A stretch of 64,000 nucleotides of DNA from Akkermansiaceae bacterium (GTDB lineage Bacteria; Verrucomicrobiota; Verrucomicrobiia; Verrucomicrobiales; Akkermansiaceae). The position numbers were made by a program, and so were the translations under genes. Below, piece after piece: positions 2,958 to 64,000 of this stretch (positions within the stretch are counted from its first letter, which is position 1; each line of letters begins with the position of its first letter). The notes under the pieces are model-generated. The model saw only the letters and a list, made by a program, of their open reading frames with translations. It was not told the origin of the DNA and did no database searches. The DNA is taken from positions 5,880-69,879 of the forward strand of contig JANXMQ010000247.1 of the NCBI GenBank assembly GCA_025354565.1, in the 5' to 3' direction.

Positions 2958-4274
2958 TTAGAGCGCATAGCCGAGTCCTTTCAAGTTGGCTTTGATGGCG
3001 GATTCGAGTTTGGCGGACTCTGCGAATTGGTTGGCTAGCTCAGCGCTGAGACGGGACATTTTCACGTCGAATCCTTCACCGTCGTCTTCGATGTCTTCGG
3101 CTCCGACGTAGCGGCCCGGTGTGAGGACGTGACCGTGTGAGATGATTTCCGTGAGATTTGCGGATTTCGAGAAGCCCGGCGCATCGGAATACGATGCGAA
3201 GTTGCTAGTTTTCAGTTTTGAGTTTTCAGCGGAAGAACGCCATTCGCGGAAAGCTCCGGCGATTTTCTCAACGTCGTCTGGAGCGAAATCACGCAGCACC
3301 CTGTCCTTCATAAAGCCTAGCTTGCGGGCGTCGATGAAGAGCGTTTCGCCGCGGCGGTCGCGTAGGGCGGCGGCACCAGGCCGGGAGCGCTTGGCTTTGT
3401 TTTTTGTGAGGAACCAGATGCAGGCGGGAATCTGGGTATTGGTGAAGAGCTGGCCGGGCAGGGCGACCATGCACTCGACGAGATCTGCCTCGATCAAGGC
3501 GCGGCGGATGTCGCCTTCGCCGCTGGAATTCGAACTCTTCGAGCCATTGGTGAGCAGCAGCGCCATCGAGCCATTCGGCGCGAGGTGGTGGAGCATGTGC
3601 TGGACCCACGCGAAGTTGGCATTCCCCTGCGGCGGCGTGCCGTATTTCCAGCGGGCGTCGCCCTCCAGCTTGCCGTCCCACCATTCTTTAATGTTGAAGG
3701 GCGGGTTTATCCTCCCGTTGGGACGATCTGCGGGGTGGCTTCGCGGGAGTGAACGCGCTGCCGCGCTGGGCAGTGCCATCACGAAGTCGGCGCGGAGGTC
3801 CGGGTGCTGGTCGCGGATGAAGGTGTCCGCCGGTTCCTTGCCGAAGTCGAAGTCGATGCTGCGGATGGCCATGGGAGAGGAAGAATTTTTAACCGCAAAG
3901 GCGCAAAGGTCGCCAAGGGACACAGAGGAAGACTTTGAACGGGAGGTTTTGGGGCCGTGGCCGAGGATGTCCTTCGCGTGAAGGTCCGCGTGCTGGAACG
4001 GGATGTTGGCGATGAGGTCGATGAGCCCCGCGAGGTTCGCCGGATCGATCTGGAGCTGGGTGTAGTTCTTGTTGAGGACGTTCTTGAGCTTCGGGTTCTC
4101 CTTCTCCACCGCTTCCAGCGCGTCGTCGATGAACTTGCCGGTGGAAGTGAATTTGTAAGAGTGGGCGAGACGCCCACGCTCCTTGATCTCCGTCCCCGCC
4201 GGGAGCTTGTCGGCAGCGGTCCAGAGCTTTTTGTCGAGCTCGCGGAGGAAGATCTGGGAATCGGAGGGGGGCAT
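2958..4274 (-). CDS. hsdM: Type I R-M methyltransferase HsdM-like, apparently degenerate (SAM-binding core missing)
   Basis: Clear HsdM blocks are present: LDKKLWTAADKL, EKENPKLKNVL, DILG, AIRSIDFDFGKEPADTF, NPPFN (3696-3707), RWKYGTPPQGNANFAWVQHMLHHLAPNG, GEGDIRRALIEADLVECMVALPGQLFTNTQIP, LFIDARKLG and LTPGRYVG. No DPxCGSGG-type motif I is present. About 100 residues between DILG and AIRSID are replaced by a 29-aa filler (3873-3962). Confidence 0.7.
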   Translation of the reverse strand: MPPSDSQIFLRELDKKLWTAADKLPAGTEIKERGRLAHSYKFTSTGKFIDDALEAVEKENPKLKNVLNKNYTQLQIDPANLAGLIDLIANIPFQHADLHAKDILGHGPKTSRSKSSSVSLGDLCAFAVKNSSSPMAIRSIDFDFGKEPADTFIRDQHPDLRADFVMALPSAAARSLPRSHPADRPNGRINPPFNIKEWWDGKLEGDARWKYGTPPQGNANFAWVQHMLHHLAPNGSMALLLTNGSKSSNSSGEGDIRRALIEADLVECMVALPGQLFTNTQIPACIWFLTKNKAKRSRPGAAALRDRRGETLFIDARKLGFMKDRVLRDFAPDDVEKIAGAFREWRSSAENSKLKTSNFASYSDAPGFSKSANLTEIISHGHVLTPGRYVGAEDIEDDGEGFDVKMSRLSAELANQFAESAKLESAIKANLKGLGYAL

Positions 4275-4553
4275 GGGGTGAAGAAGTGCCGAGTCAGCAG
4301 TGATCAGTGATCAGAAAAGATTTGAGAGTGAGCAGTGAGCAGGAAAAATTCGTCAGGGCTAGGCAGGTGTTTCGCTACCAGAAGCTAACAACATTCGGAG
4401 GGGCGGAAAGGAGAAAATCGTGGTGATTTCCGATGAAAGCCCGTCTATTGAGCCTCACAATCCGCGTTCTTGAGAGTTTAGGAATCCAATGCGAGGCACA
4501 TTTTCCACAAACGCGTTGCACCGACCGAAGATCGGGAGAGAATCCCGCCGTCC

Positions 4554-5600
4554 ATGACTCCTGATTTCATCCGCGAAGCGCTCCGCCAAGTCCGTTACCC
4601 CGGTTTTTCTCGGGACATCATCTCCTTCGGCCTCGTCAAAGAGGTGAAATGCGAGCCCGGCCTCGTCACGGTCCAACTCGAAATCGCGACTCGCGATCCC
4701 AAGGTGCCGGAACAGATTTTCCAAGACTGCCACGCAATCCTCGATCCCCTGCCGGACATCGGCACCGTGAAAATCGAGATCGACGTCAAAGACGCGCCCG
4801 CCGCCGCTGGTGGTCTTGGCTCGACTGTCGGCAAGTCCTCAATTCCCGGCGTCAAGCGCATCCTTGCGGTCGCTTCTGGCAAAGGAGGCGTGGGAAAATC
4901 CACCGTCGCCGCCAATCTCGCCGTCGCCCTCGCCGCCACAGGCGCACAGGTCGGCCTCTGCGACTGCGATCTCTACGGCCCATCGGTCGCCCAAATGTTC
5001 GCCGTGAACGAGCGCCCCATGGCCAACGACCAAGACGAAATCATCCCCCTCGAAGCCCACGGCGTAAAACTCATGTCCATGGGCTTCCTCCTCGAAGACC
5101 GCTCCCCCGTCATCGTTCGCGGTCCCATGGCCACCCGCTACACCCAGCAATTCCTCCGCCAAGTCGCATGGGAAAACCTCGATTACCTCGTGCTCGATCT
5201 CCCGCCCGGCACCGGCGATATCCAGCTCACCATCGTCCAAACCGTCGCCGTCGATGCCGTCGTCATCGTCACCACCCCCCAAGAAGTCGCCCTCATCGAC
5301 GCCCGCAAAGCCGTCTCCATGTTCGCCAAAGTCAACGTCCCCATCCTCGGCCTCATTGAAAACATGGCTTGGTTCGAGGGCGACGACGGTAAAAAATACC
5401 ACCTCTTCGGCAAAGACGGCGGCGTCCGCGAAGCCGCCGAAATGAACGTCCCCCTCCTTGGCCAGATCCCCATCGACATCGAGACCCGCGAGCGCGGCGA
5501 CAGCGGCGCCCCCATCGCCCTCGTCTCACCCGCCCTCAGCAAAATCTCCGCCGCCTTCCATCAAGTCGCCGCCCACATCCGCGCCAAGCTCCCCTTGTAG
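4554..5600 (+). CDS. apbC: Fe-S cluster carrier ATPase Mrp/ApbC (N-terminal DUF59 domain + ParA-type P-loop)
   Basis: It has the sequence ILAVASGKGGVGKSTVAANLAVALA, a CDCDLYGPS motif and the segment LVLDLPPGTGD. This is the typical Mrp/NBP35 architecture. Confidence 0.9.
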   Translation: MTPDFIREALRQVRYPGFSRDIISFGLVKEVKCEPGLVTVQLEIATRDPKVPEQIFQDCHAILDPLPDIGTVKIEIDVKDAPAAAGGLGSTVGKSSIPGVKRILAVASGKGGVGKSTVAANLAVALAATGAQVGLCDCDLYGPSVAQMFAVNERPMANDQDEIIPLEAHGVKLMSMGFLLEDRSPVIVRGPMATRYTQQFLRQVAWENLDYLVLDLPPGTGDIQLTIVQTVAVDAVVIVTTPQEVALIDARKAVSMFAKVNVPILGLIENMAWFEGDDGKKYHLFGKDGGVREAAEMNVPLLGQIPIDIETRERGDSGAPIALVSPALSKISAAFHQVAAHIRAKLPL

Positions 5601-57144: not shown

Positions 57145-57330
57145 GAGCCTCAAAATTCGAGCGCATCCGTCGTCGATGCTAGGGAGAAATCCAATCGCTG
57201 TCTGTCCCACGGAAGGGCGATGAGCAGGGCAGCTACATTGGAAATCGCTAACAATCAAAGCACCCTCCATGCAGAAGTCCGGGCATTCTTCGAGGACGCG
57301 GCCAACCTCCCCTACGCCCGCAAAAAAGGC
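57145..57330 (+). pseudogene. Decayed ISAs1-family transposase remnant
   Basis: The frame-1 translation reads ...VVDAREKSNRCLSHGRAMSRAATLEIANNQSTLHAEVRAFFEDA. It retains the EKSNE- and KxNQxTLhxxvxxFF-like blocks of ISAs1 (H-repeat) transposases, but the sequence between them is deleted. No intact DDE domain is present. Confidence 0.4.
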
Positions 57331-57902
57331 GGCACCGTCGCTCACTATCTGGAGGATGAACCTCACAGCGATGAAACGCCGAATGCGGTCGAACTCTCGC
57401 CCGCGCAGGTGGAGGCCTTTGCCATCCGGTTTTGTCCCGCCACGAGAGACGAGGCGATGTGCGCCGAGACCAATCCCGAGACCTCCATGGAAATCGCTCA
57501 CCTTCCCCACGAACTGGGAATCAACATGGTTGATGCTTCTAATTTTGAGGAGGTCAAGAAAGCCATCACGATGGCCCCCCGGTGAAATTTGATGTCGTGC
57601 GCCAAGTCCGGGTGTTCGAGCCCTATCTTCAGTAGGTGGAAATGAAGCTCACCGGTCCCGCCAGCAAGTGGTCGAATACTACCTACCCCTTGCATGTCTT
57701 GGAAAGCGTGTTCCCCAGCACCGACAAGCTGATCCGCGGGATGTCCTTGGAGGTCACCTACAAGGAGGCAACTTTCGAAACTTTGAATCGCCCGGACTTT
57801 CTTGAATCTGTCAAAAAGGCCTATCCAAGAGTCATTTGGAACAAGGCATACCAAGAATTCCGAGCAGCGGGAGAAAAGAAATCCCGTCACGCCTGACCAC
57901 TA

Positions 57903-58778
57903 TCAAGCCAGCTTCAAATCCGGTGCTTCCGGCAGGCGGGCGAAATCCACCACCTTGTCGGTTTCAAACTCGCCGACAAAGACGAAGTCATCGTTGAGTA
58001 GCTCCTTCTGGATCTGAAGGAATGCGTTCCGCCGGAGTCCGGCTTCCTCATTCGGTTCACGGGCGGTGACGAGGCAGCGGTCGGGACGGAAACCTAGCTG
58101 CCTAAGCCGTTTTATCTTCTGAGTCCACTCGTCGCCGTGGTTGAAGATGTCGGTGGAAGTGGGAAGGTCGAAGTTCAACGGACGGAGGGCACGGTCTGCG
58201 CGGCGGTCGCCGGTGAGATGGGCCAGCGTGAAAATGACGTGGTATTCCTCCGGCCCGATTTTCACATCCTTGGCGTACGCCGGGAGTATTTTGGCATCTT
58301 CGAGTACGCGACGCAGGGCTTTTGCCATTTGCTGTTCGGCAGCCTGATGAATTGTAAAGCCGTCTTGGTCGATGAATCGCGCCTTCAGCTTCTCCAGCAC
58401 CGTTTTCATGTCCTCAGCCATTCTCCGGCCCTTCACAGGAAAGCAGAAAACCCCCTCACGCGGGCTGGTGATCGCGGCGAAGAGACCATTCTCTTTTTCA
58501 CGGAAGGGCGGGAAAAGCGGCACTTCCACGCCGAGACCGTTCACCGCTTGGCGAATTCCATCGAATTCCGCTTCAAGCTTGTTTCTCGCCTCGCGATAGA
58601 GCGTCTTTTCGATGGCCGGAAACATCCCGAGCACGCGCCCGGTTTTCTGGGCTTTTTGAAGGATGAAATCAAAGTGCCGTGCGGCAACGTCCAGCGCGAC
58701 CACACCAATAGTCACGAATTCCTCCGTCTCCGCGTAGGGACGGAAGCCAATCGTGGCAAAATCGTAGGTGCGTTTCAT
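57903..58778 (-). CDS. DUF3037-domain protein with a C-terminal extension of about 165 aa
   Basis: The N-terminus MKRTYDFATIGFRPYAETEEFVTIGVVALDVAARHFDFIL matches the DUF3037 N-terminal pattern as I remember it (Y.ysv.rf.P....eEf.NiGvvl). ATG 58778 forms an ATGA overlap with the kinase stop. Confidence 0.6.
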   Translation of the reverse strand: MKRTYDFATIGFRPYAETEEFVTIGVVALDVAARHFDFILQKAQKTGRVLGMFPAIEKTLYREARNKLEAEFDGIRQAVNGLGVEVPLFPPFREKENGLFAAITSPREGVFCFPVKGRRMAEDMKTVLEKLKARFIDQDGFTIHQAAEQQMAKALRRVLEDAKILPAYAKDVKIGPEEYHVIFTLAHLTGDRRADRALRPLNFDLPTSTDIFNHGDEWTQKIKRLRQLGFRPDRCLVTAREPNEEAGLRRNAFLQIQKELLNDDFVFVGEFETDKVVDFARLPEAPDLKLA

Positions 58779-59530
58779 GGTGCGGTTAAAGTGGGAAGGG
58801 ACCAGAAGTCCGGGTCGGTTTGATGGGAAGATAGCACAGCCTTCAAGCCGTCTTTGTCCAGCGTGCAACGTGGATCTCCGTAAGAATCGATCAACCATTC
58901 CTCGGGGAGTTCATTCCAAAGCCGGTCGATCCACGCTTCGCCGGTTGCCAGCCACGCGGTCATTTCCACCCGCTTGTCGGTGTCCCATGCGCTCAAATGC
59001 CCCCGGAGGGCGTGGAACCGCCAGAAATGAGTCGCACCGAAGTCATCGTCGAAAGCATTGTCGTGGTCGAAAACCACCACCCGCCCCGGATCGAGTTCCC
59101 AAAGCAGATTGGGGTTTCCTCCGGTTTCCGTGAGAACGCGGTCGCAATTCCGAATCCACCAGTCGAAAAGCAGAATCAGGGAAAGCACACCGTCGGGATC
59201 TTCCCGGACGAACGCCAACGCCAGTCGCTCCGCCGGTTCCACCCGCCGCGAGCCGAATGCGATGCCATCACCGAGTTCCCGCTCGAACTCCTCGTTTCCC
59301 GCCACCAGATCCTTGGAGATGCGAACCTGCCGAATCTCCGCCGCTTGCAGCCCCATCTCCTGAGCCAGCCTTCCTGCGATCCACTCTTTCACCAGTTGCG
59401 TGTATCCGGCATTCTTGAGTTTCACAAAATAGCGAGCGTCATCGTCGCCGAGGCAACGGAAAGGGCGGCTGATGCCGTTCCCTTCGTCGGTGCGGCCTTC
59501 AATGGCAATGATGTCGATCATGTCTGGCAC
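58775..59530 (-). CDS. HipA-like (PI3/4-kinase-fold) protein kinase, short stand-alone form
   Basis: It has the Lys motif ARYFVKLKN and the catalytic/Mg block LFDWWIRNCDRVLTETGGNPNLLWELDPGRVVVFDHDNAF (N-x-DR ... N-x-N ... DHD). The start is GTG 59530 or ATG 59521. Confidence 0.6.
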   Translation of the reverse strand: MPDMIDIIAIEGRTDEGNGISRPFRCLGDDDARYFVKLKNAGYTQLVKEWIAGRLAQEMGLQAAEIRQVRISKDLVAGNEEFERELGDGIAFGSRRVEPAERLALAFVREDPDGVLSLILLFDWWIRNCDRVLTETGGNPNLLWELDPGRVVVFDHDNAFDDDFGATHFWRFHALRGHLSAWDTDKRVEMTAWLATGEAWIDRLWNELPEEWLIDSYGDPRCTLDKDGLKAVLSSHQTDPDFWSLPTLTAP

Positions 59531-59543
59531 ATTTCAAAAACTG

Positions 59544-60836
59544 CTATCGATTTCCCTTGGACGAATTGCATGACTGACACATTAACGCAGCGTTATCGAG
59601 TCGAGACTTTCCGCCTTTGCTGTGAGGATCGATATGGTCGATGGTGAAGTCGTCCCAAGAAAGTTTTCGGGAGCAATCCTTGCATTTTCTCTCAGCAGAA
59701 GTGCCCCAGATGACCCGCCGCTGTTCCGCAGAAAATCCGCGTTGCGAATCTTTCGTTGCAAAGAGGCTTCCGAGGATCTCCCGCAAGTGACCTTCCCGTT
59801 TGCGGCGTTGGCTCACGTCATCGCTGGCCTGTGATGTCGTCAGGAGGTAATCTCGATAGATTTCCTCATCGGGTTGGCTAGCGTTCATTTTCTTTCGGTT
59901 CTCACGAACTTGGTCCACGTTGACCGCGAACGCTTCAAGAAGATCCCAAGCAAGTTTGTTGCGACGAGGGTTAGTCAGAATCAAGCCCTCCAACTCGAAC
60001 TTGCCGACCAGAACAGCTAACGAATAGAAATCCGCAAGGTTCCGAAGCCTTGTTGTTTTCAGATTTGGGAACATCTTATGCACGCGGTTCAGGCTGGTCG
60101 TCACCTGAGCGGATAGCTTTGTTGTCACGGCAGGCGTGAACGAATTACTCACCATGACGCGGTCGAGCGCTGTCTTCCTGTTGATGACATCCCCTTGATG
60201 CGCCGACAGCATCAACTCGCACATCAGCTCAACGTGTTTCATGCGGCTGACTTGGGTGCTGCTCATGACACCCATGCTGATCAGCAGCTTCTCAAACTTT
60301 TTAGCCATCCTGTTGGCCGCTTTGAGAAAGTTGCTATTGAAGTATTTCGCGTTTTTCTTTTCCTGAGGGGTCAACGCCTTTCCGGTCGAATTGATTCGCA
60401 CAAAGACATCGATAATATCTCCAATATCGCCATCGACTTCGATAACCGAAAGCCGGTAACCGGAAATGAGATGCTGTTGCTGCTTTTTCTTTAATTTCCG
60501 CCAGTCGATCAATTCGACCTGATCACTTCCCGGCATTTGGCCCTTCAACTCGAAGCGTCCTTTCATCTCGCCCGTAAACATCAGAATCGATTCAATCCGT
60601 TGCTTTCCGTCGATCACATCGTAATAGATGTGCCCCTCATGCTCCCGCCGATAGAAGAACACTGCGGGAAGCGGATAATTGCGTAGGATGCTCTCAATGA
60701 GTTTTTGTCGGTCGCCAACTTTCCAAACAGACTGCCTCTGGAAACCAGGATTCAAATTCAGAAACCCGCTCTTATGCAGGTTGATGAGATCCGTTACAGT
60801 TCGGGTTTCGGGGCGGTGTGTCAGTGACGTTTTCAT
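59544..60836 (-). CDS. DUF262 (ParB/GmrSD N-terminal-like) + C-terminal HNH nuclease protein
   Basis: The N-terminal block is FLNLNPGFQRQSVWKVGDRQKLIESILRNYPLPAVFFY...YYDVIDGKQRIESI (DGQQR-type motif). The C-terminal block is CKDCSRKLSWDDFTIDHIDPHSKGGKSRLDNAALMCQSCNSSKGN. The start was set to MKTSL (60836). The upstream 108 codons of ORF 59544..61160 overlap hsdS. Confidence 0.8.
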   Translation of the reverse strand: MKTSLTHRPETRTVTDLINLHKSGFLNLNPGFQRQSVWKVGDRQKLIESILRNYPLPAVFFYRREHEGHIYYDVIDGKQRIESILMFTGEMKGRFELKGQMPGSDQVELIDWRKLKKKQQQHLISGYRLSVIEVDGDIGDIIDVFVRINSTGKALTPQEKKNAKYFNSNFLKAANRMAKKFEKLLISMGVMSSTQVSRMKHVELMCELMLSAHQGDVINRKTALDRVMVSNSFTPAVTTKLSAQVTTSLNRVHKMFPNLKTTRLRNLADFYSLAVLVGKFELEGLILTNPRRNKLAWDLLEAFAVNVDQVRENRKKMNASQPDEEIYRDYLLTTSQASDDVSQRRKREGHLREILGSLFATKDSQRGFSAEQRRVIWGTSAERKCKDCSRKLSWDDFTIDHIDPHSKGGKSRLDNAALMCQSCNSSKGNR

Positions 60837-60843
60837 CTTTGGC

Positions 60844-62250
60844 TTATCGTTTTCCTGCTTTGGATTTGCGGCTACTTCCCCCCCCCTCGGGGACACCTGA
60901 GCGAAGGCGTTCCAACATCGCCGCCGCCGGTTCGTCGTTGGGGTCTTGGGGGACGAGTTCGCCGCGGAAGGCTTTGGTGAGAGTGGCCGGGGTGAGGCGC
61001 TCGACGGTCTTTCGCGCGGTGGCGAGGCGGGCTTCGATCCGGTCGGCGAAGGCGAACAGGTCTTCGACCCGGCGGACGATTTCTTGTTGCTCGGATAGAG
61101 GTGGGAGAAAAACGGGAGATTCGCGAAGCAACCCAAGCGAAGCGAATTTTTGATTTCCACCCCGAAGTCTCGGGTCCAACCATTGGCTAAACAGCGGCCC
61201 TTGTAGCCAGTAAAACATATATTGAGGCAAGACTGTCCCTGGGTTATTCTTAAACAGTCCCACGTTTTTAATGCTGAACTCCCGCCTGGTTTCCACTATG
61301 CATATATGCCCCACGCTACCGATCATGGAGAATAGAACGTCACCAATGTCAACCTTTGATCGTTTTGAAATTTCACGGTGATCATCTTGGGAAATTTGTT
61401 GAGCGCCTTCAAAGTCAATGCCTGCTGGGCGTATGTTCTTTGAAGTAACCAACGGTATTCCAGATTTCACATACTTTGGTGTGTCATGCGTGCCATCTCG
61501 GACTGATGAGCAAACTGCATCAGCACGAGTTACTTTCCATGTAGACGGAAGCGTGAGTGTTGCGTCTTCAAATTCAATTTCGACATTATGCAACTCGTCA
61601 TTCGCCCCATTCGTCATTCTCCATTCCTCCGTTAGGCGGCCACTCGTGGCGGCGGCGAGGACGGATTGGCGGAAGCGTTTGAGGAGGGCGGGGACGCGGT
61701 CGAGGCGGGCGCGGCAGGCGTCCACCCGACCCAGCAGCACCTCCAGCTTGTCCGCGATCCGCTTTTGCTCGGCGAGGGGGGCGAGGATGAAGGGCGCCGC
61801 TCTTCCTGCTTCGGTGCCAAGGCGTGGCATATTCAGACCGTGACTGACGGCTGTGACGTAGTCGAGAAAAGTCGGGTGTTTCAACCAGTAGAAGAGATAA
61901 CGGTTTTCAAGCGTGCCGTTACCTCGAAGCGGGATGATTTCAGTTGTGCAATAGCCGGGTTGGTCAGCGATGAGGATCTTGTTCAGGTAGGGACGGAGCT
62001 TTCCATAGAGGACATCCCCAGTTTCAAAGCGGTTCTTTGTGCTCTTCGATTTTCTTTCCGCAAATGTAACACGAGAAAGCAACTGGGATGTGTCTTTCTC
62101 GATGTCCTCAAGCTCTAGAATCCACGACTTGGCTGAGATTTTGCTGGGTTCGGCTTTCCGGGTCTTTCCGTAATCAACGACATCGCCGAGTGCGCATGAC
62201 TGCCACCCCTCCGGCAATTCGTCATTCGTCATTCGGATCTCGCCATTCAT
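60844..62250 (-). CDS. hsdS: Type I R-M specificity subunit HsdS
   Basis: The N-terminus is ELPEGWQSCALGDVVDYGKT. The central helix is PLAEQKRIADKLEVLLGRVDACRARLDRVPALLKRFRQSVLAAATSG. The distal helix is PPLSEQQEIVRRVEDLFAFADRIEARLATARKTVERLTPATLTKAFRGELV. Both target-recognition domains have low GC. Confidence 0.9.
   Translation of the reverse strand: MNGEIRMTNDELPEGWQSCALGDVVDYGKTRKAEPSKISAKSWILELEDIEKDTSQLLSRVTFAERKSKSTKNRFETGDVLYGKLRPYLNKILIADQPGYCTTEIIPLRGNGTLENRYLFYWLKHPTFLDYVTAVSHGLNMPRLGTEAGRAAPFILAPLAEQKRIADKLEVLLGRVDACRARLDRVPALLKRFRQSVLAAATSGRLTEEWRMTNGANDELHNVEIEFEDATLTLPSTWKVTRADAVCSSVRDGTHDTPKYVKSGIPLVTSKNIRPAGIDFEGAQQISQDDHREISKRSKVDIGDVLFSMIGSVGHICIVETRREFSIKNVGLFKNNPGTVLPQYMFYWLQGPLFSQWLDPRLRGGNQKFASLGLLRESPVFLPPLSEQQEIVRRVEDLFAFADRIEARLATARKTVERLTPATLTKAFRGELVPQDPNDEPAAAMLERLRSGVPEGGGSSRKSKAGKR
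60878..60886. repeat. Homopolymer tract C9 (G9 on the coding strand) 11 codons before the hsdS stop
   Basis: The minus strand reads gtc ccc gag ggg ggg gga agt (VPEGGGS). The tract lies 42 nt upstream of the DUF262/HNH start codon. Confidence 0.95.
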
Positions 62251-62846
62251 TACCTTTTCAGCTTTTGGATCACGGAATCGAGTTCAAAGGACGCCCAGCA
62301 GACTTTGGCGAGTTCGTGGCCGTGGCCGCGCCAGGTGGCGTTGAGGACTTTGAAGTTCTTGGACTGGAGTCGGTCCACGGCTGGGATGAAATCGCGGTCG
62401 CTGCTGAGGAGGAGGGCGATATCGTAGGCACCTTCCCAAGAGAGGCTGAGCATATCCGTGACGATCCGGGAATCGACGGTTTTCTCAGCAGCTCGGCCGA
62501 GGTCGGCCCTACAACTCGGGCAGGTGGCGAAATCCGTTCCGCAGGCGCGGCAGTGGATGGTGTGTTTCTTCCAATGACGTTCGACAGCGAAGACACGGAT
62601 ACCAGGTTGCTTGTCGAGAAAGTTGTGGCGCCAGCCTTTGAGTTTGGCTTCGCGACCGGGCTCGTAGGAGGCATAGACGCGGGTTTCTTCCAGTGACAGG
62701 TTTCCCAAACCGGCGTTGCCAAGCAAGGTTTGAGCCTCCTGTGCGAGAACGAGCGGAAGTCGTGACCAATCGCATTGCGCGCCACCGGAGCGGTCGTTCC
62801 AGTTGAGAGAGAAGTTCCAGAAGTCGATGAAGAGGCGGAGTTTCAT
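62250..62846 (-). CDS. NYN-domain (LabA/PIN-like RNase fold) protein with an inserted Cys4 zinc ribbon
   Basis: The NYN blocks are MKLRLFIDFWNF and VDSRIVTDMLSLSWEGAYDIALLLSSDRDFIPAVDRLQSKNFKV. The zinc-ribbon insert is HCRACGTDFATCPSCRADL. Its TAA stop overlaps the hsdS ATG by 1 nt (TAATG). Confidence 0.75.
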   Translation of the reverse strand: MKLRLFIDFWNFSLNWNDRSGGAQCDWSRLPLVLAQEAQTLLGNAGLGNLSLEETRVYASYEPGREAKLKGWRHNFLDKQPGIRVFAVERHWKKHTIHCRACGTDFATCPSCRADLGRAAEKTVDSRIVTDMLSLSWEGAYDIALLLSSDRDFIPAVDRLQSKNFKVLNATWRGHGHELAKVCWASFELDSVIQKLKR

Positions 62847-62849
62847 GAG

Positions 62850-62885
62850 GGTAAAAAATACGGGGAGCACCTTGCAGTGCTCCCC
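62850..62885 (-). terminator. Terminator-like hairpin between hsdM and the NYN gene
   Basis: The minus strand reads GGGGAGCAC-TGCAAG-GTGCTCCCC (perfect 9-bp stem, 62862-62885), followed by GTATTTTTTACCCTC and then the NYN ATG. Confidence 0.6.
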
Positions 62886-63000
62886 GGGAAGTTCATACGT
62901 GCCGCAAATTGCGACACGGGAATGTCATGGACAAAGAATGCCACGGGAGCCCAGATGGTCAAGGAGGATTTTGGAGGATTGGCCATTCGGATTTCGTCAT

Positions 63001-64000
63001 TCACACTCCCACCTCCTCCACTTCCTCCTCTAGTTCTGTCAGAATTCCCCGCAGATCTTCCATGATGGATTCCATTTCCTCCATGGCGCTGGCGGCGAGG
63101 ATGGCGGGTTCCGGGAGGTCGGCGCTGGATTCGGCGCTGTCGTCCTTGAGCCAGGAGATGTCGAGGGAGTCGTCGCGTCCGGCGATCCACTCGCGGGTGA
63201 ACTTGCGGAAGCGGCCGGATTCGCCGGTGTCCTTGCGTTTTTTGAGGGCGGCGGGGCCACCTAACGGATCGTTGCCGTAGGCTTTCTCGAAATCGGAAAA
63301 ATGCTCGCGGGTGAGCGGGGTGCGTTTGCCGAATTGCGGCATGTTGGCGCGGAGGTCATAGACCCAGACTTCCTTGGTGTTGCCCTTCTCGGTCTTGCCA
63401 CGGGTGAAGAAGAGGACGTTGGTTTTCACGCCTTGGGCGTAGAAGATGCCGGTGGGCAGGCGGAGGATGGTGTGAAGGTTGCACTTGTTCATCAGGTCGC
63501 GGCGGATGTCCTTGCCAACGCCGGATTCGAACAGGACATTGTCCGGCAGCACGACAGCGGCGCGGCCACCGGGCAGGAGGTAGCGATAGATGTGCTGGAC
63601 GAAGCAGAATTGCTTGTTGCTGGTGGGATAGGTGAAGTCGGTGCGGGTGGGCAGTCCGCCGCCCTTCTTGGTGCCGAAGGGTGGATTGGTGAGGATGAGC
63701 GTGGCCTTGGGCAGGGCAGCGCCGTCTTCGGATAGAGTGTCGCCATAACGGACGCCGTTCTCGATGCCGTGGAGCATGAGGTTCATGAGCGCGAGGCGGT
63801 GGGTGTCCTGCACGTGTTCCATGCCGCAGAAGGTGCCGCTGCGGTATTTCTTCTGCTTGGCTTCGGTGAGGGAATCGAAGTCGTTGTGGGTCCGGAGGTA
63901 GTGGTTCGCCGCGATGTGGAAACCGCAAGTGCCGGCGGCGGGGTCCTGGATGATGTCGTCGAGCGTGGGCTTCATCACGTGGACCATGCTGTCGATGAGG
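63001..64000 (-). CDS. hsdM: Type I R-M methyltransferase HsdM (5' end beyond the right edge)
   Basis: Motif I is IQDPAAGTCGF and motif IV is LTNPPFG. The blocks FVQHIYRYLLPGGRAAVVLPDNVLF and ILRLPTGIFYAQGVKTNVLFF are also present. The frame stays open to position 64000 (...LIDSMVHVMKPTL). Confidence 0.9.
   Translation of the reverse strand, partial: LIDSMVHVMKPTLDDIIQDPAAGTCGFHIAANHYLRTHNDFDSLTEAKQKKYRSGTFCGMEHVQDTHRLALMNLMLHGIENGVRYGDTLSEDGAALPKATLILTNPPFGTKKGGGLPTRTDFTYPTSNKQFCFVQHIYRYLLPGGRAAVVLPDNVLFESGVGKDIRRDLMNKCNLHTILRLPTGIFYAQGVKTNVLFFTRGKTEKGNTKEVWVYDLRANMPQFGKRTPLTREHFSDFEKAYGNDPLGGPAALKKRKDTGESGRFRKFTREWIAGRDDSLDISWLKDDSAESSADLPEPAILAASAMEEMESIMEDLRGILTELEEEVEEVGV

Follow-up and report, generated by a model that had tools for sequence, protein, structure and literature searches.

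Two overlapping genes at the tail of a restriction–modification (R-M) operon raise the question of whether they form a single functional unit and, if so, of which kind. The genes lie at positions 57,903 to 59,530 of a DNA stretch of 64,000 nucleotides (nt) from an Akkermansiaceae bacterium (contig JANXMQ010000247.1, positions 5,880 to 69,879), and this whole stretch is referred to as the window. The first gene codes for a small HipA-like kinase, the second for a partner protein with a DUF3037 domain. An earlier reading of the letters alone, here called the original prediction, proposed a two-gene defence or toxin module in which the kinase could be a toxin and the DUF3037 protein an antitoxin, a sensor or a substrate. 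Judging from its sequence, the pair is very probably a verrucomicrobial member of the HipAD family. This type of pair is already known and has been validated in Escherichia coli: HipAD, DS-6 and the PADLOC entry PDC-M66 are the same.

The kinase, the partner and their family

The original prediction knew of no experimental function for such pairs, a statement which is out of date for their homologues. The PDC models of PADLOC come from ‘guilt-by-embedding’, applied to systems of the BREX, DISARM and type I R-M kinds (Payne et al. 2024). In a study of Retron-Sda1 (PLoS Biol 2025, PMC12548924), DUF3037 was found strongly associated with HipA-like kinases and the pair was equated with PDC-M66. 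At the Retron-Sda1 locus, defence against phage Bas51 was lost when the kinase was deleted, and loss of the DUF3037 gene was toxic; the retron reverse transcriptase and the non-coding RNA were both dispensable (PMC12548924). The E. coli pair DS-6 was validated as phage defence in the DefensePredictor work (Science 2026, PMC13092281) and renamed HipAD after an independent discovery by Brenes & Laub 2025. In the same work, the kinase mutant D139A of DS-6A lost defence. A complex of DS-6 A and B is predicted by AlphaFold3 with an interface predicted template modelling score of 0.76–0.79, and DNA binding by the partner is predicted more weakly (PMC13092281). The HipAD details used here are drawn from the DefensePredictor paper, from its supplements for the DS-6 sequences and from the GenBank record of phage PhiR5_1. 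Together with the deletion genetics at Retron-Sda1, they favour, by analogy with homologues, the proposed defence module of kinase toxin and DUF3037 antitoxin.

Both proteins of the window match the profiles and the validated members of this family. In PADLOC-DB, PDC-M66A is found on the kinase (42 bits, E 1.4e-11, profile positions 42–174 of 270) and PDC-M66B on the partner (30 bits, E 6.9e-8, profile positions 2–219 of 281). By BLASTP, the kinase shares 29% identity with DS-6A/HipA over 236 amino acids (E 2e-30), and residues 7–224 of the partner share 23% identity with DS-6B/HipD over 220 amino acids (E 8e-14). The PHROGs collection provides phrog_3162 for the kinase and phrog_5137 for the partner, the latter along the full length (residues 1–280). 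The ‘HipA toxin’ and the ‘HipD antitoxin’ of the lambdoid Escherichia phage PhiR5_1 (L185, PV340545.1) have the same sequences as DS-6A and DS-6B (100% identity).

In PhiR5_1, cI is followed directly, on its own strand, by hipA and hipD (3093–5544), which overlap by 4 nt like the window genes. This position corresponds to the slot of rexAB in phage lambda, which implies expression from the repressor transcript of the lysogen.

The kinase is accounted for by a single Pfam domain, HipA_2 (PF20613, 198.8 bits, residues 8–244 of 251), and no match to the HipA N-terminal domain was obtained in Pfam. Its translation contains FVKLK, WIRNCDR, GNPNLL and FDHDNAF. The description of a 251-residue kinase which carries these motifs and is devoid of the HipA N-terminal domains was therefore accurate. 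The catalytic residues are K37, E49, D130–R131, N139, N141 and D155–H156. With N128 added, the full signature (K37/E49/N128/D130/R131/N139/N141/D155/H156) is complete in the window and intact in 146 of the 160 family kinases. Alignments of 25–37 kinases, reaching down to 29% identity, reveal an invariant set composed of K37, E49, F122–D123, W125, N128, D130–R131, G137–G138–N139, N141 and D155; H156 is invariant in the first of these kinase alignments and nearly invariant in the second. The aspartate D139 of DS-6A, which is needed for defence, aligns with D130 of the window kinase.

An AlphaFold2 model of the kinase reached a predicted local distance difference test score (pLDDT) of 90 and a predicted template modelling score of 0.89. 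Foldseek placed CtkA first (E 1.7e-4, template modelling score 0.54), followed by PI4KIIalpha (E 1.3e-3); Rio kinases were matched as well. HipA (3tpt, E 5e-3, probability 0.97) and HipT (8ezs, E 7e-3) were also recovered. On the strength of this model, ‘HipA/PI3-4K-like’ is a correct label at the level of the fold. By sequence, the link to canonical HipA is not significant (E 0.8 for the kinase profile against HipA in the PDB). Sequence searches of the PDB with single queries and with profiles found no solved relative of the kinase or of the partner, and no NCBIfam model matched either protein.

The N-terminus of the partner had been assigned to DUF3037, and PF11236 indeed scores 33.2 bits on residues 7–135, above the cut-off of 22.6. 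Searches with hidden Markov models (HMMs) of DUF3037 and of the HipA-like kinase, recommended in the original prediction, thus matched both families.

The junction between the two genes reads TCAT on the plus strand at 58775–58778, that is ATGA on the coding strand. As noted earlier, the TGA of the kinase overlaps the ATG of the 291-residue partner, and this overlap implies that the two proteins would be translationally coupled. At the other end of the kinase gene, an alternative in-frame ATG at 59521 would yield a protein of 248 residues and is the start called on identical public contigs. The GTG start is favoured here because close kinase homologues begin with MPDLID. A scan for sigma-70 promoters returned a single weak site which overlaps the kinase start and does not exceed chance expectation.

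The reality of both open reading frames (ORFs) is far beyond chance because about 80 full-length homologue clusters exist for each of the two proteins and because the pairing is kept in every kinase-anchored locus examined. The copy in the window is intact, and an identical sequence is present on several independent public contigs.

Co-occurrence and one-sided decay of the pair

How constant is the association of kinase and partner? Kinase-anchored scans confirmed 451 metagenomic matches and 212 from IMG/VR; from each set, the best 80 entered the analysis. Among the resulting 160 kinase ORFs, 156 had room downstream for a partner. In this sample the co-occurrence is obligate: a DUF3037-family ORF follows on the same strand in 156 of 156 loci, and a kinase without partner was never seen (0/156). 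Stand-alone HipA-family kinases and DUF3037 proteins had been described as frequent neighbours in the original prediction, in line with these counts. The 4-nt overlap is present in 142 of the 156 loci and also in E. coli DS-6 and phage PhiR5_1.

A partner-anchored scan of species-representative genomes complements this picture. It produced 15 loci, all from Verrucomicrobiota (Luteolibacter, Akkermansiaceae), which form a decay series: three intact pairs, intact partners with deleted kinases, orphan partners and many partner fragments. In the Akkermansiaceae metagenome-assembled genome (MAG) represented by L002/L003/L015 (9783–10004), the kinase is deleted at its 5′ end and only its last ~50 codons are left beside an intact partner. 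In a Luteolibacter MAG (L011, 8479–8615), kinase residues 22–220 are deleted internally and the partner is again intact. These two deletions are independent events. Intact orphan partners, 72–73% identical to the window partner, were found in another MAG (L007, 7972–8853) and in L009/L010 (10001–10879); an unfiltered HMM search found no kinase remnants in the orphan loci L007 and L009.

Some further features of these loci are worth recording. The island of L002/L003/L015 also contains MmeI, a large helicase, T5orf172 and DUF4357. The orphan partners of L007 and L009/L010 are preceded by unannotated genes of 224 and 135 amino acids, respectively.

The decay is one-sided, with the kinase lost first, as a toxic kinase would lead one to expect. 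Because partners occur without kinases and kinases without partners were not seen, the comparison of loci lends the toxin and antitoxin roles a support which does not depend on the published experiments.

The same pattern would also be expected from a selfish toxin–antitoxin cassette which stabilises the R-M or defence island by post-segregational killing and senses no phage in this host. Orphan antitoxin-like partners and deleted kinases are typical of such decay, the cassette behaves like a mobile unit, turning up in various R-M operons and prophages with intermixed contexts, and the GC content is mildly lower across the operon (0.52–0.57) than in the flanking housekeeping genes (0.60–0.63). 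However, homologues confer measurable kinase-dependent phage defence, and the module sits in dedicated defence slots, beside cI in a lambdoid phage and inside R-M operons. We consider pure addiction unlikely, and it is in any case compatible with abortive infection, the two not being mutually exclusive.

The type I R-M neighbourhood

The pair is the last element of a gene run on the minus strand which comprises hsdM, a NYN-domain gene, hsdS, a GmrSD_N-HNH gene, the kinase and the partner (Table 1). Intergenic gaps within this run range from -1 to 22 nt, except for 154 nt between hsdM and the NYN gene.

Table 1. Positions of the gene pair, its parts and the neighbouring genes in the window
Feature	Position	Strand	Description
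Kinase gene (hipA-like)	58775-59530	minus	251 aa, GTG start at 59530; putative toxin, HipA_2 kinase
Partner gene (hipD-like)	57903-58778	minus	291 aa
ATGA junction	58775-58778	minus	Kinase TGA overlapping partner ATG, 4 nt
Partner N-terminal DUF3037 domain	58359-58778	minus	aa 1-140; putative kinase-neutralising module
Partner C-terminal domain and stop codon	57903-58358	minus	aa 141-291; family-wide, without Pfam model
GmrSD_N (DUF262) + HNH nuclease	59544-60836	minus	430 aa, type IV restriction-like; Pfam GmrSD_N 85.6 bits, HNH 49 bits; gene call on identical contig
hsdS	60844-62250	minus	468 aa, type I R-M specificity subunit; Pfam Methylase_S in two stretches; gene call on identical contig
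NYN-domain protein	62250-62846	minus	198 aa, between hsdM and hsdS; Pfam NYN 45 bits, PADLOC HEC-09 38 bits; gene call on identical contig
hsdM	63001-64000	minus	5′ end beyond the window, frame open to the window end; Pfam N6_Mtase 201.8 bits
aa, amino acids.

The GmrSD_N-HNH gene is located immediately upstream of the pair, 13–22 nt from the kinase start. Its best PADLOC matches are NsnA (115.7 bits) and PD-T4-2_A, and HEC-05/06 are matched as well. In this protein, HNH takes the place of the usual GmrSD_C/DUF1524. The same slot in L001 harbours a protein composed of GmrSD_N, GmrSD_C and DUF5655, so that the GmrSD nuclease module has been swapped between relatives. HEC-09, the PADLOC match of the NYN protein, showed no defence against any phage tested (Payne et al. 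2024).

A strong terminator-like hairpin (62861–62886, minus strand) of 11 pairs, of which 8 are G-C, with TATTTTTT after it, is found in the gap which separates the hsdM stop codon from the start of the NYN gene. Because of it, NYN-hsdS-GmrSD-hipA-hipD would be transcribed apart from hsdM or at a reduced level. On the other side of the pair, two small convergent ORFs of 121 and 84 amino acids (57220–57585 and 57642–57896, plus strand) end 7 nt from the partner stop codon. No match to them was found in Pfam, PADLOC or NCBIfam. The identical public contigs carry both of them, but in relatives they are missing beside the pair.

The linkage to R-M genes recurs. In L001, the closest well-assembled relative, the order is HsdR-HsdS-GmrSD-HipA_2-DUF3037-HsdM. 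Of 41 metagenomic loci (>= 8 kb), 14 have type I R-M-like genes in their flanks; the corresponding figures are 11 of 16 for verrucomicrobial loci and 0 of 73 for viral or prophage loci. In 11 of the 14 R-M-linked metagenomic loci, the hsd genes are co-directional and the pair directly follows hsdS or precedes hsdM; R-M adjacency is also seen in L001, in L014 and in the window. In a sample of 147 crude neighbour ORFs taken at 17 diverse loci, N6_Mtase, ResIII, SWI2_SNF2, HSDR_N, HsdM_N and Methylase_S are the commonest Pfam families. The 14/41 and the neighbour-family figures are plain counts. With a few hsd genes among several thousand genes, only a few percent of random 10-kb neighbourhoods should lie beside a type I system.

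The argument that the tail of an R-M operon and a DUF262-HNH neighbour point to a role in conflict was sound: the same guilt-by-embedding route first flagged PDC-M66.

Clustering of the kinases separates the contexts in part. DS-6A falls into a purely prophage cluster, and prophage kinases form clusters of their own. The window kinase belongs to a separate verrucomicrobial clade with four R-M-linked loci and one other. We rejected the possibility that R-M-linked pairs are one co-evolving lineage: in the kinase clustering they are intermixed with other chromosomal contexts, the nearest neighbour of an R-M-linked kinase coming from another context in 11 cases and from an R-M-linked locus in 10. 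Because of this intermixing, the pattern is consistent with a mobile cassette which inserted repeatedly into R-M operons and into the immunity regions of prophages rather than with descent of a single co-evolving R-M lineage. Members of the family occupy two kinds of habitat, the immunity regions of prophages and the operons of type I R-M systems.

Could the pair then guard the R-M system, as PrrC does? Here, the pair would monitor the type I R-M complex, and the kinase would be set free once the enzyme is disabled by an anti-restriction protein of a phage. The linkage just described, recurrent, co-directional and often adjacent (11 of the 14 R-M-linked metagenomic loci, L001, L014 and the window), is what a guard would require, and PrrC offers a precedent as a system almost exclusively embedded in type I R-M (Payne et al. 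2024). Such a guard is nevertheless very unlikely: DS-6/HipAD defends when cloned alone, natural prophage loci are free of R-M genes (0 of 73 viral loci), and the repeated insertion of R-M-linked kinases into a permissive operon fits the clustering better than co-evolution.

The second domain of the partner and the proposed mechanism

The C-terminal part of the partner deserves closer attention. It had been described as an unassigned extension of about 165 residues. The lack of an assignment stands, as a permissive Pfam scan of this half (residues 136–291) revealed no family which covers it. What does not stand is the peculiarity of an ‘extended’ protein: the C-terminal part is the normal second domain of the whole family, left out of the Pfam DUF3037 model. 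A partner HMM was built from 109 partners taken exclusively from non-verrucomicrobial metagenomic and viral loci. The C-terminal half of this HMM matches residues 141–291 of the window partner with 90.5 bits (E 2e-29), and residues 1–140 score 91.5 bits against the same HMM. The second domain is considered family-wide because the HMM of unrelated lineages recognises it and because the median length of family partners is 277 amino acids. Close homologues of the window partner are all ~293 amino acids long and conserved from end to end, and the alignment with HipD extends far into the ‘unassigned’ half (to residue 224).

The AlphaFold2 model of this domain has a pLDDT above 90. Its topology, alpha-beta-beta-beta-alpha-beta-alpha, fits the restriction-endonuclease-like core alpha-beta-beta-beta-alpha-beta. 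Foldseek matches are weak (best PDB E 0.02; nuclease matches in BFVD at ~1e-3 or weaker), but most of them, from the PDB as well as from the viral library, belong to the restriction endonuclease or PD-(D/E)xK type: BstEII, Card1, MUS81, XPF, R.BspD6I, phage restriction enzymes, RecB-like and Cas4-like proteins. Across 111 family sequences, the conserved positions are E148, K/R199–P200, H214 and W218; position 199 is an arginine in the window and a lysine in most of the family. A canonical PD-(D/E)xK active site was considered and rejected, as the 111 sequences share no conserved acid on strand 2 or two positions before the lysine or arginine. The model and this conservation are consistent with a nuclease-derived binding or sensing domain rather than an active nuclease.

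Two annotations of this region were also evaluated. The label DUF1829 given by DefensePredictor (HHpred probability 0.78) is a low-probability profile–profile match and is not family-defining; hmmscan gave no match at E up to 10 for the C-terminal domain of the window partner or for HipD itself. In the clade relative L014 (10001–10876), partner residues 147–192, where the C-terminal domain begins, show a sub-threshold match (E 0.019) to the Pfam family TRSP (PF12500, ‘C terminus to PRTase_2’). This echoes a published remark that the C-terminus of the Sda1 DUF3037 protein resembles the accessory protein of a type III-A1 retron.

Partners of 127–154 amino acids, reduced to the N-terminal domain, were observed in L027 (3468–3852), L028 (725–1259), L061 (6728–7193) and L064 (3963–4428). 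The kinases beside these four partners keep the full catalytic signature. Because such partners coexist with catalytically intact kinases, this coexistence suggests that the DUF3037 N-domain is the neutralising module and is sufficient for neutralisation, the C-terminal domain being dispensable for it.

It is extremely unlikely that the partner is instead the effector, its C-terminal nuclease being switched on by kinase phosphorylation with the kinase as sensor or activator: the alpha-beta-beta-beta-alpha-beta topology, the mostly PD-(D/E)xK-type Foldseek matches and the family-wide E148, K/R199 and H214 would suit such a role, but there is no conserved D...(D/E)xK acidic pair, the PDB fold matches all have E 0.02 or worse, deletion of DUF3037 at Retron-Sda1 is toxic rather than neutral and deletion of the kinase abolishes defence, N-domain-truncated partners stand beside catalytically intact kinases, and orphan partners persist without kinases.

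All three of these readings, namely the addiction module, the R-M guard and the nuclease effector, are judged much less likely than a toxin–antitoxin anti-phage mechanism of the HipAD type. By analogy with the homologues, we regard this mechanism as a whole as likely for the window pair. The compact HipA_2 protein, an atypical kinase of the Ser/Thr type, would be the toxin. In uninfected cells, the HipD-like partner would hold the kinase inactive, most likely by binding it directly with the N-terminal DUF3037 domain. The C-terminal domain, predicted to have a restriction-endonuclease-like fold devoid of a canonical nuclease site, probably binds DNA or senses the trigger. Phage infection would relieve the inhibition, and the kinase would then phosphorylate an essential target, leading to arrest of the cell and an aborted infection. 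The module could be seen as a passenger which closes a type I R-M operon at its 3′ end; the operon also carries NYN and GmrSD-HNH proteins, several defences being layered in one locus. Phage defence, the requirement for kinase activity and the toxicity upon partner deletion are carried over from the literature on homologues, and we infer that the window copy would be active.

Some points weigh against this assignment and this mechanism. The PADLOC matches are weak (42 and 30 bits), the kinase match spans only about half of the PDC-M66A profile, and PADLOC itself, under its own calling thresholds, might not call the locus. Identity to the validated pair is low, at 29% for the kinase and 23% for the partner. 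The decay asymmetry joins two differently anchored samples, and the one anchored on the partner is small, with 15 loci which all come from Verrucomicrobiota. In this verrucomicrobial clade the module decays frequently, and activity of any single copy is not guaranteed, though the window copy is intact. All experimental support comes from homologues outside this organism and clade. Even for DS-6, abortive infection, direct binding of kinase and partner, and DNA binding are hypotheses or AlphaFold predictions (PMC13092281). Confidence is lower for the mechanism as a whole than for family membership because, even in the model system, trigger, target and abortive outcome await proof.

A more specific variant can be imagined for R-M-embedded lineages, to which four of the five kinases of the window clade belong. 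In these lineages, the partner C-terminal domain would sense the state of DNA or of the co-encoded type I R-M/GmrSD proteins, and the kinase would serve as a second line, triggering an abortive response to a phage which escapes or blocks restriction. Although very unlikely, this variant would, if true, represent a kinase-based functional analogue of PrrC.

What does the window add to current knowledge? It establishes no new category. It very probably extends the HipAD/DS-6/PDC-M66 family, validated yet mechanistically unsolved, to Verrucomicrobiota. The facts which are new at the level of the family are a universal second domain of the partner without Pfam model, a near-invariant junction, a decay in which the kinase goes first, partners reduced to the N-domain beside intact kinases, and the two habitats. 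Any tractable member could help to solve the mechanism, and the window copy offers no special advantage in this respect.

Among known systems, HipBA and HipBST share with the window pair a kinase core fold of the HipA/CtkA/PI3-4K type and the logic of a toxin kinase with a protein antitoxin. HipA phosphorylation is directed at GltX and that of HipT at TrpS. HipBA differs in its larger toxin, which has HipA N-terminal domains and HipA_C (~440 amino acids), whereas the window kinase consists of HipA_2 only (251 amino acids). The companion in HipBA or HipBST, HipB with a helix-turn-helix (Xre) domain or HipS, is encoded upstream, in contrast to the downstream DUF3037 protein of the window, where the upstream gene codes for GmrSD_N-HNH. 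PrrC, the anticodon nuclease of EcoprrI, is likewise a toxic effector module embedded in a type I R-M operon, but the proteins are unrelated and HipAD works without R-M. The pair adjacent to Retron-Sda1 has the same two-gene architecture of a HipA-like kinase and a DUF3037 protein, although no retron reverse transcriptase or non-coding RNA is associated with the pair of the window. The window pair shares with the PDC discovery set its location in or beside a type I R-M operon, and both PDC-M66 models match it. HipAD/DS-6 occupies a cI-adjacent slot of a lambdoid prophage, whereas the window pair is found at the tail of a type I R-M operon; the identities of 29% and 23% are low, and the two kinases fall into different clusters. 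The two systems otherwise have much in common: a HipA_2 kinase of ~250 amino acids precedes a two-domain DUF3037 protein of ~275–290 amino acids, the gene order and the 4-nt overlap are shared, both proteins are significantly similar, the catalytic aspartate is kept and the C-terminal domain is held in common.

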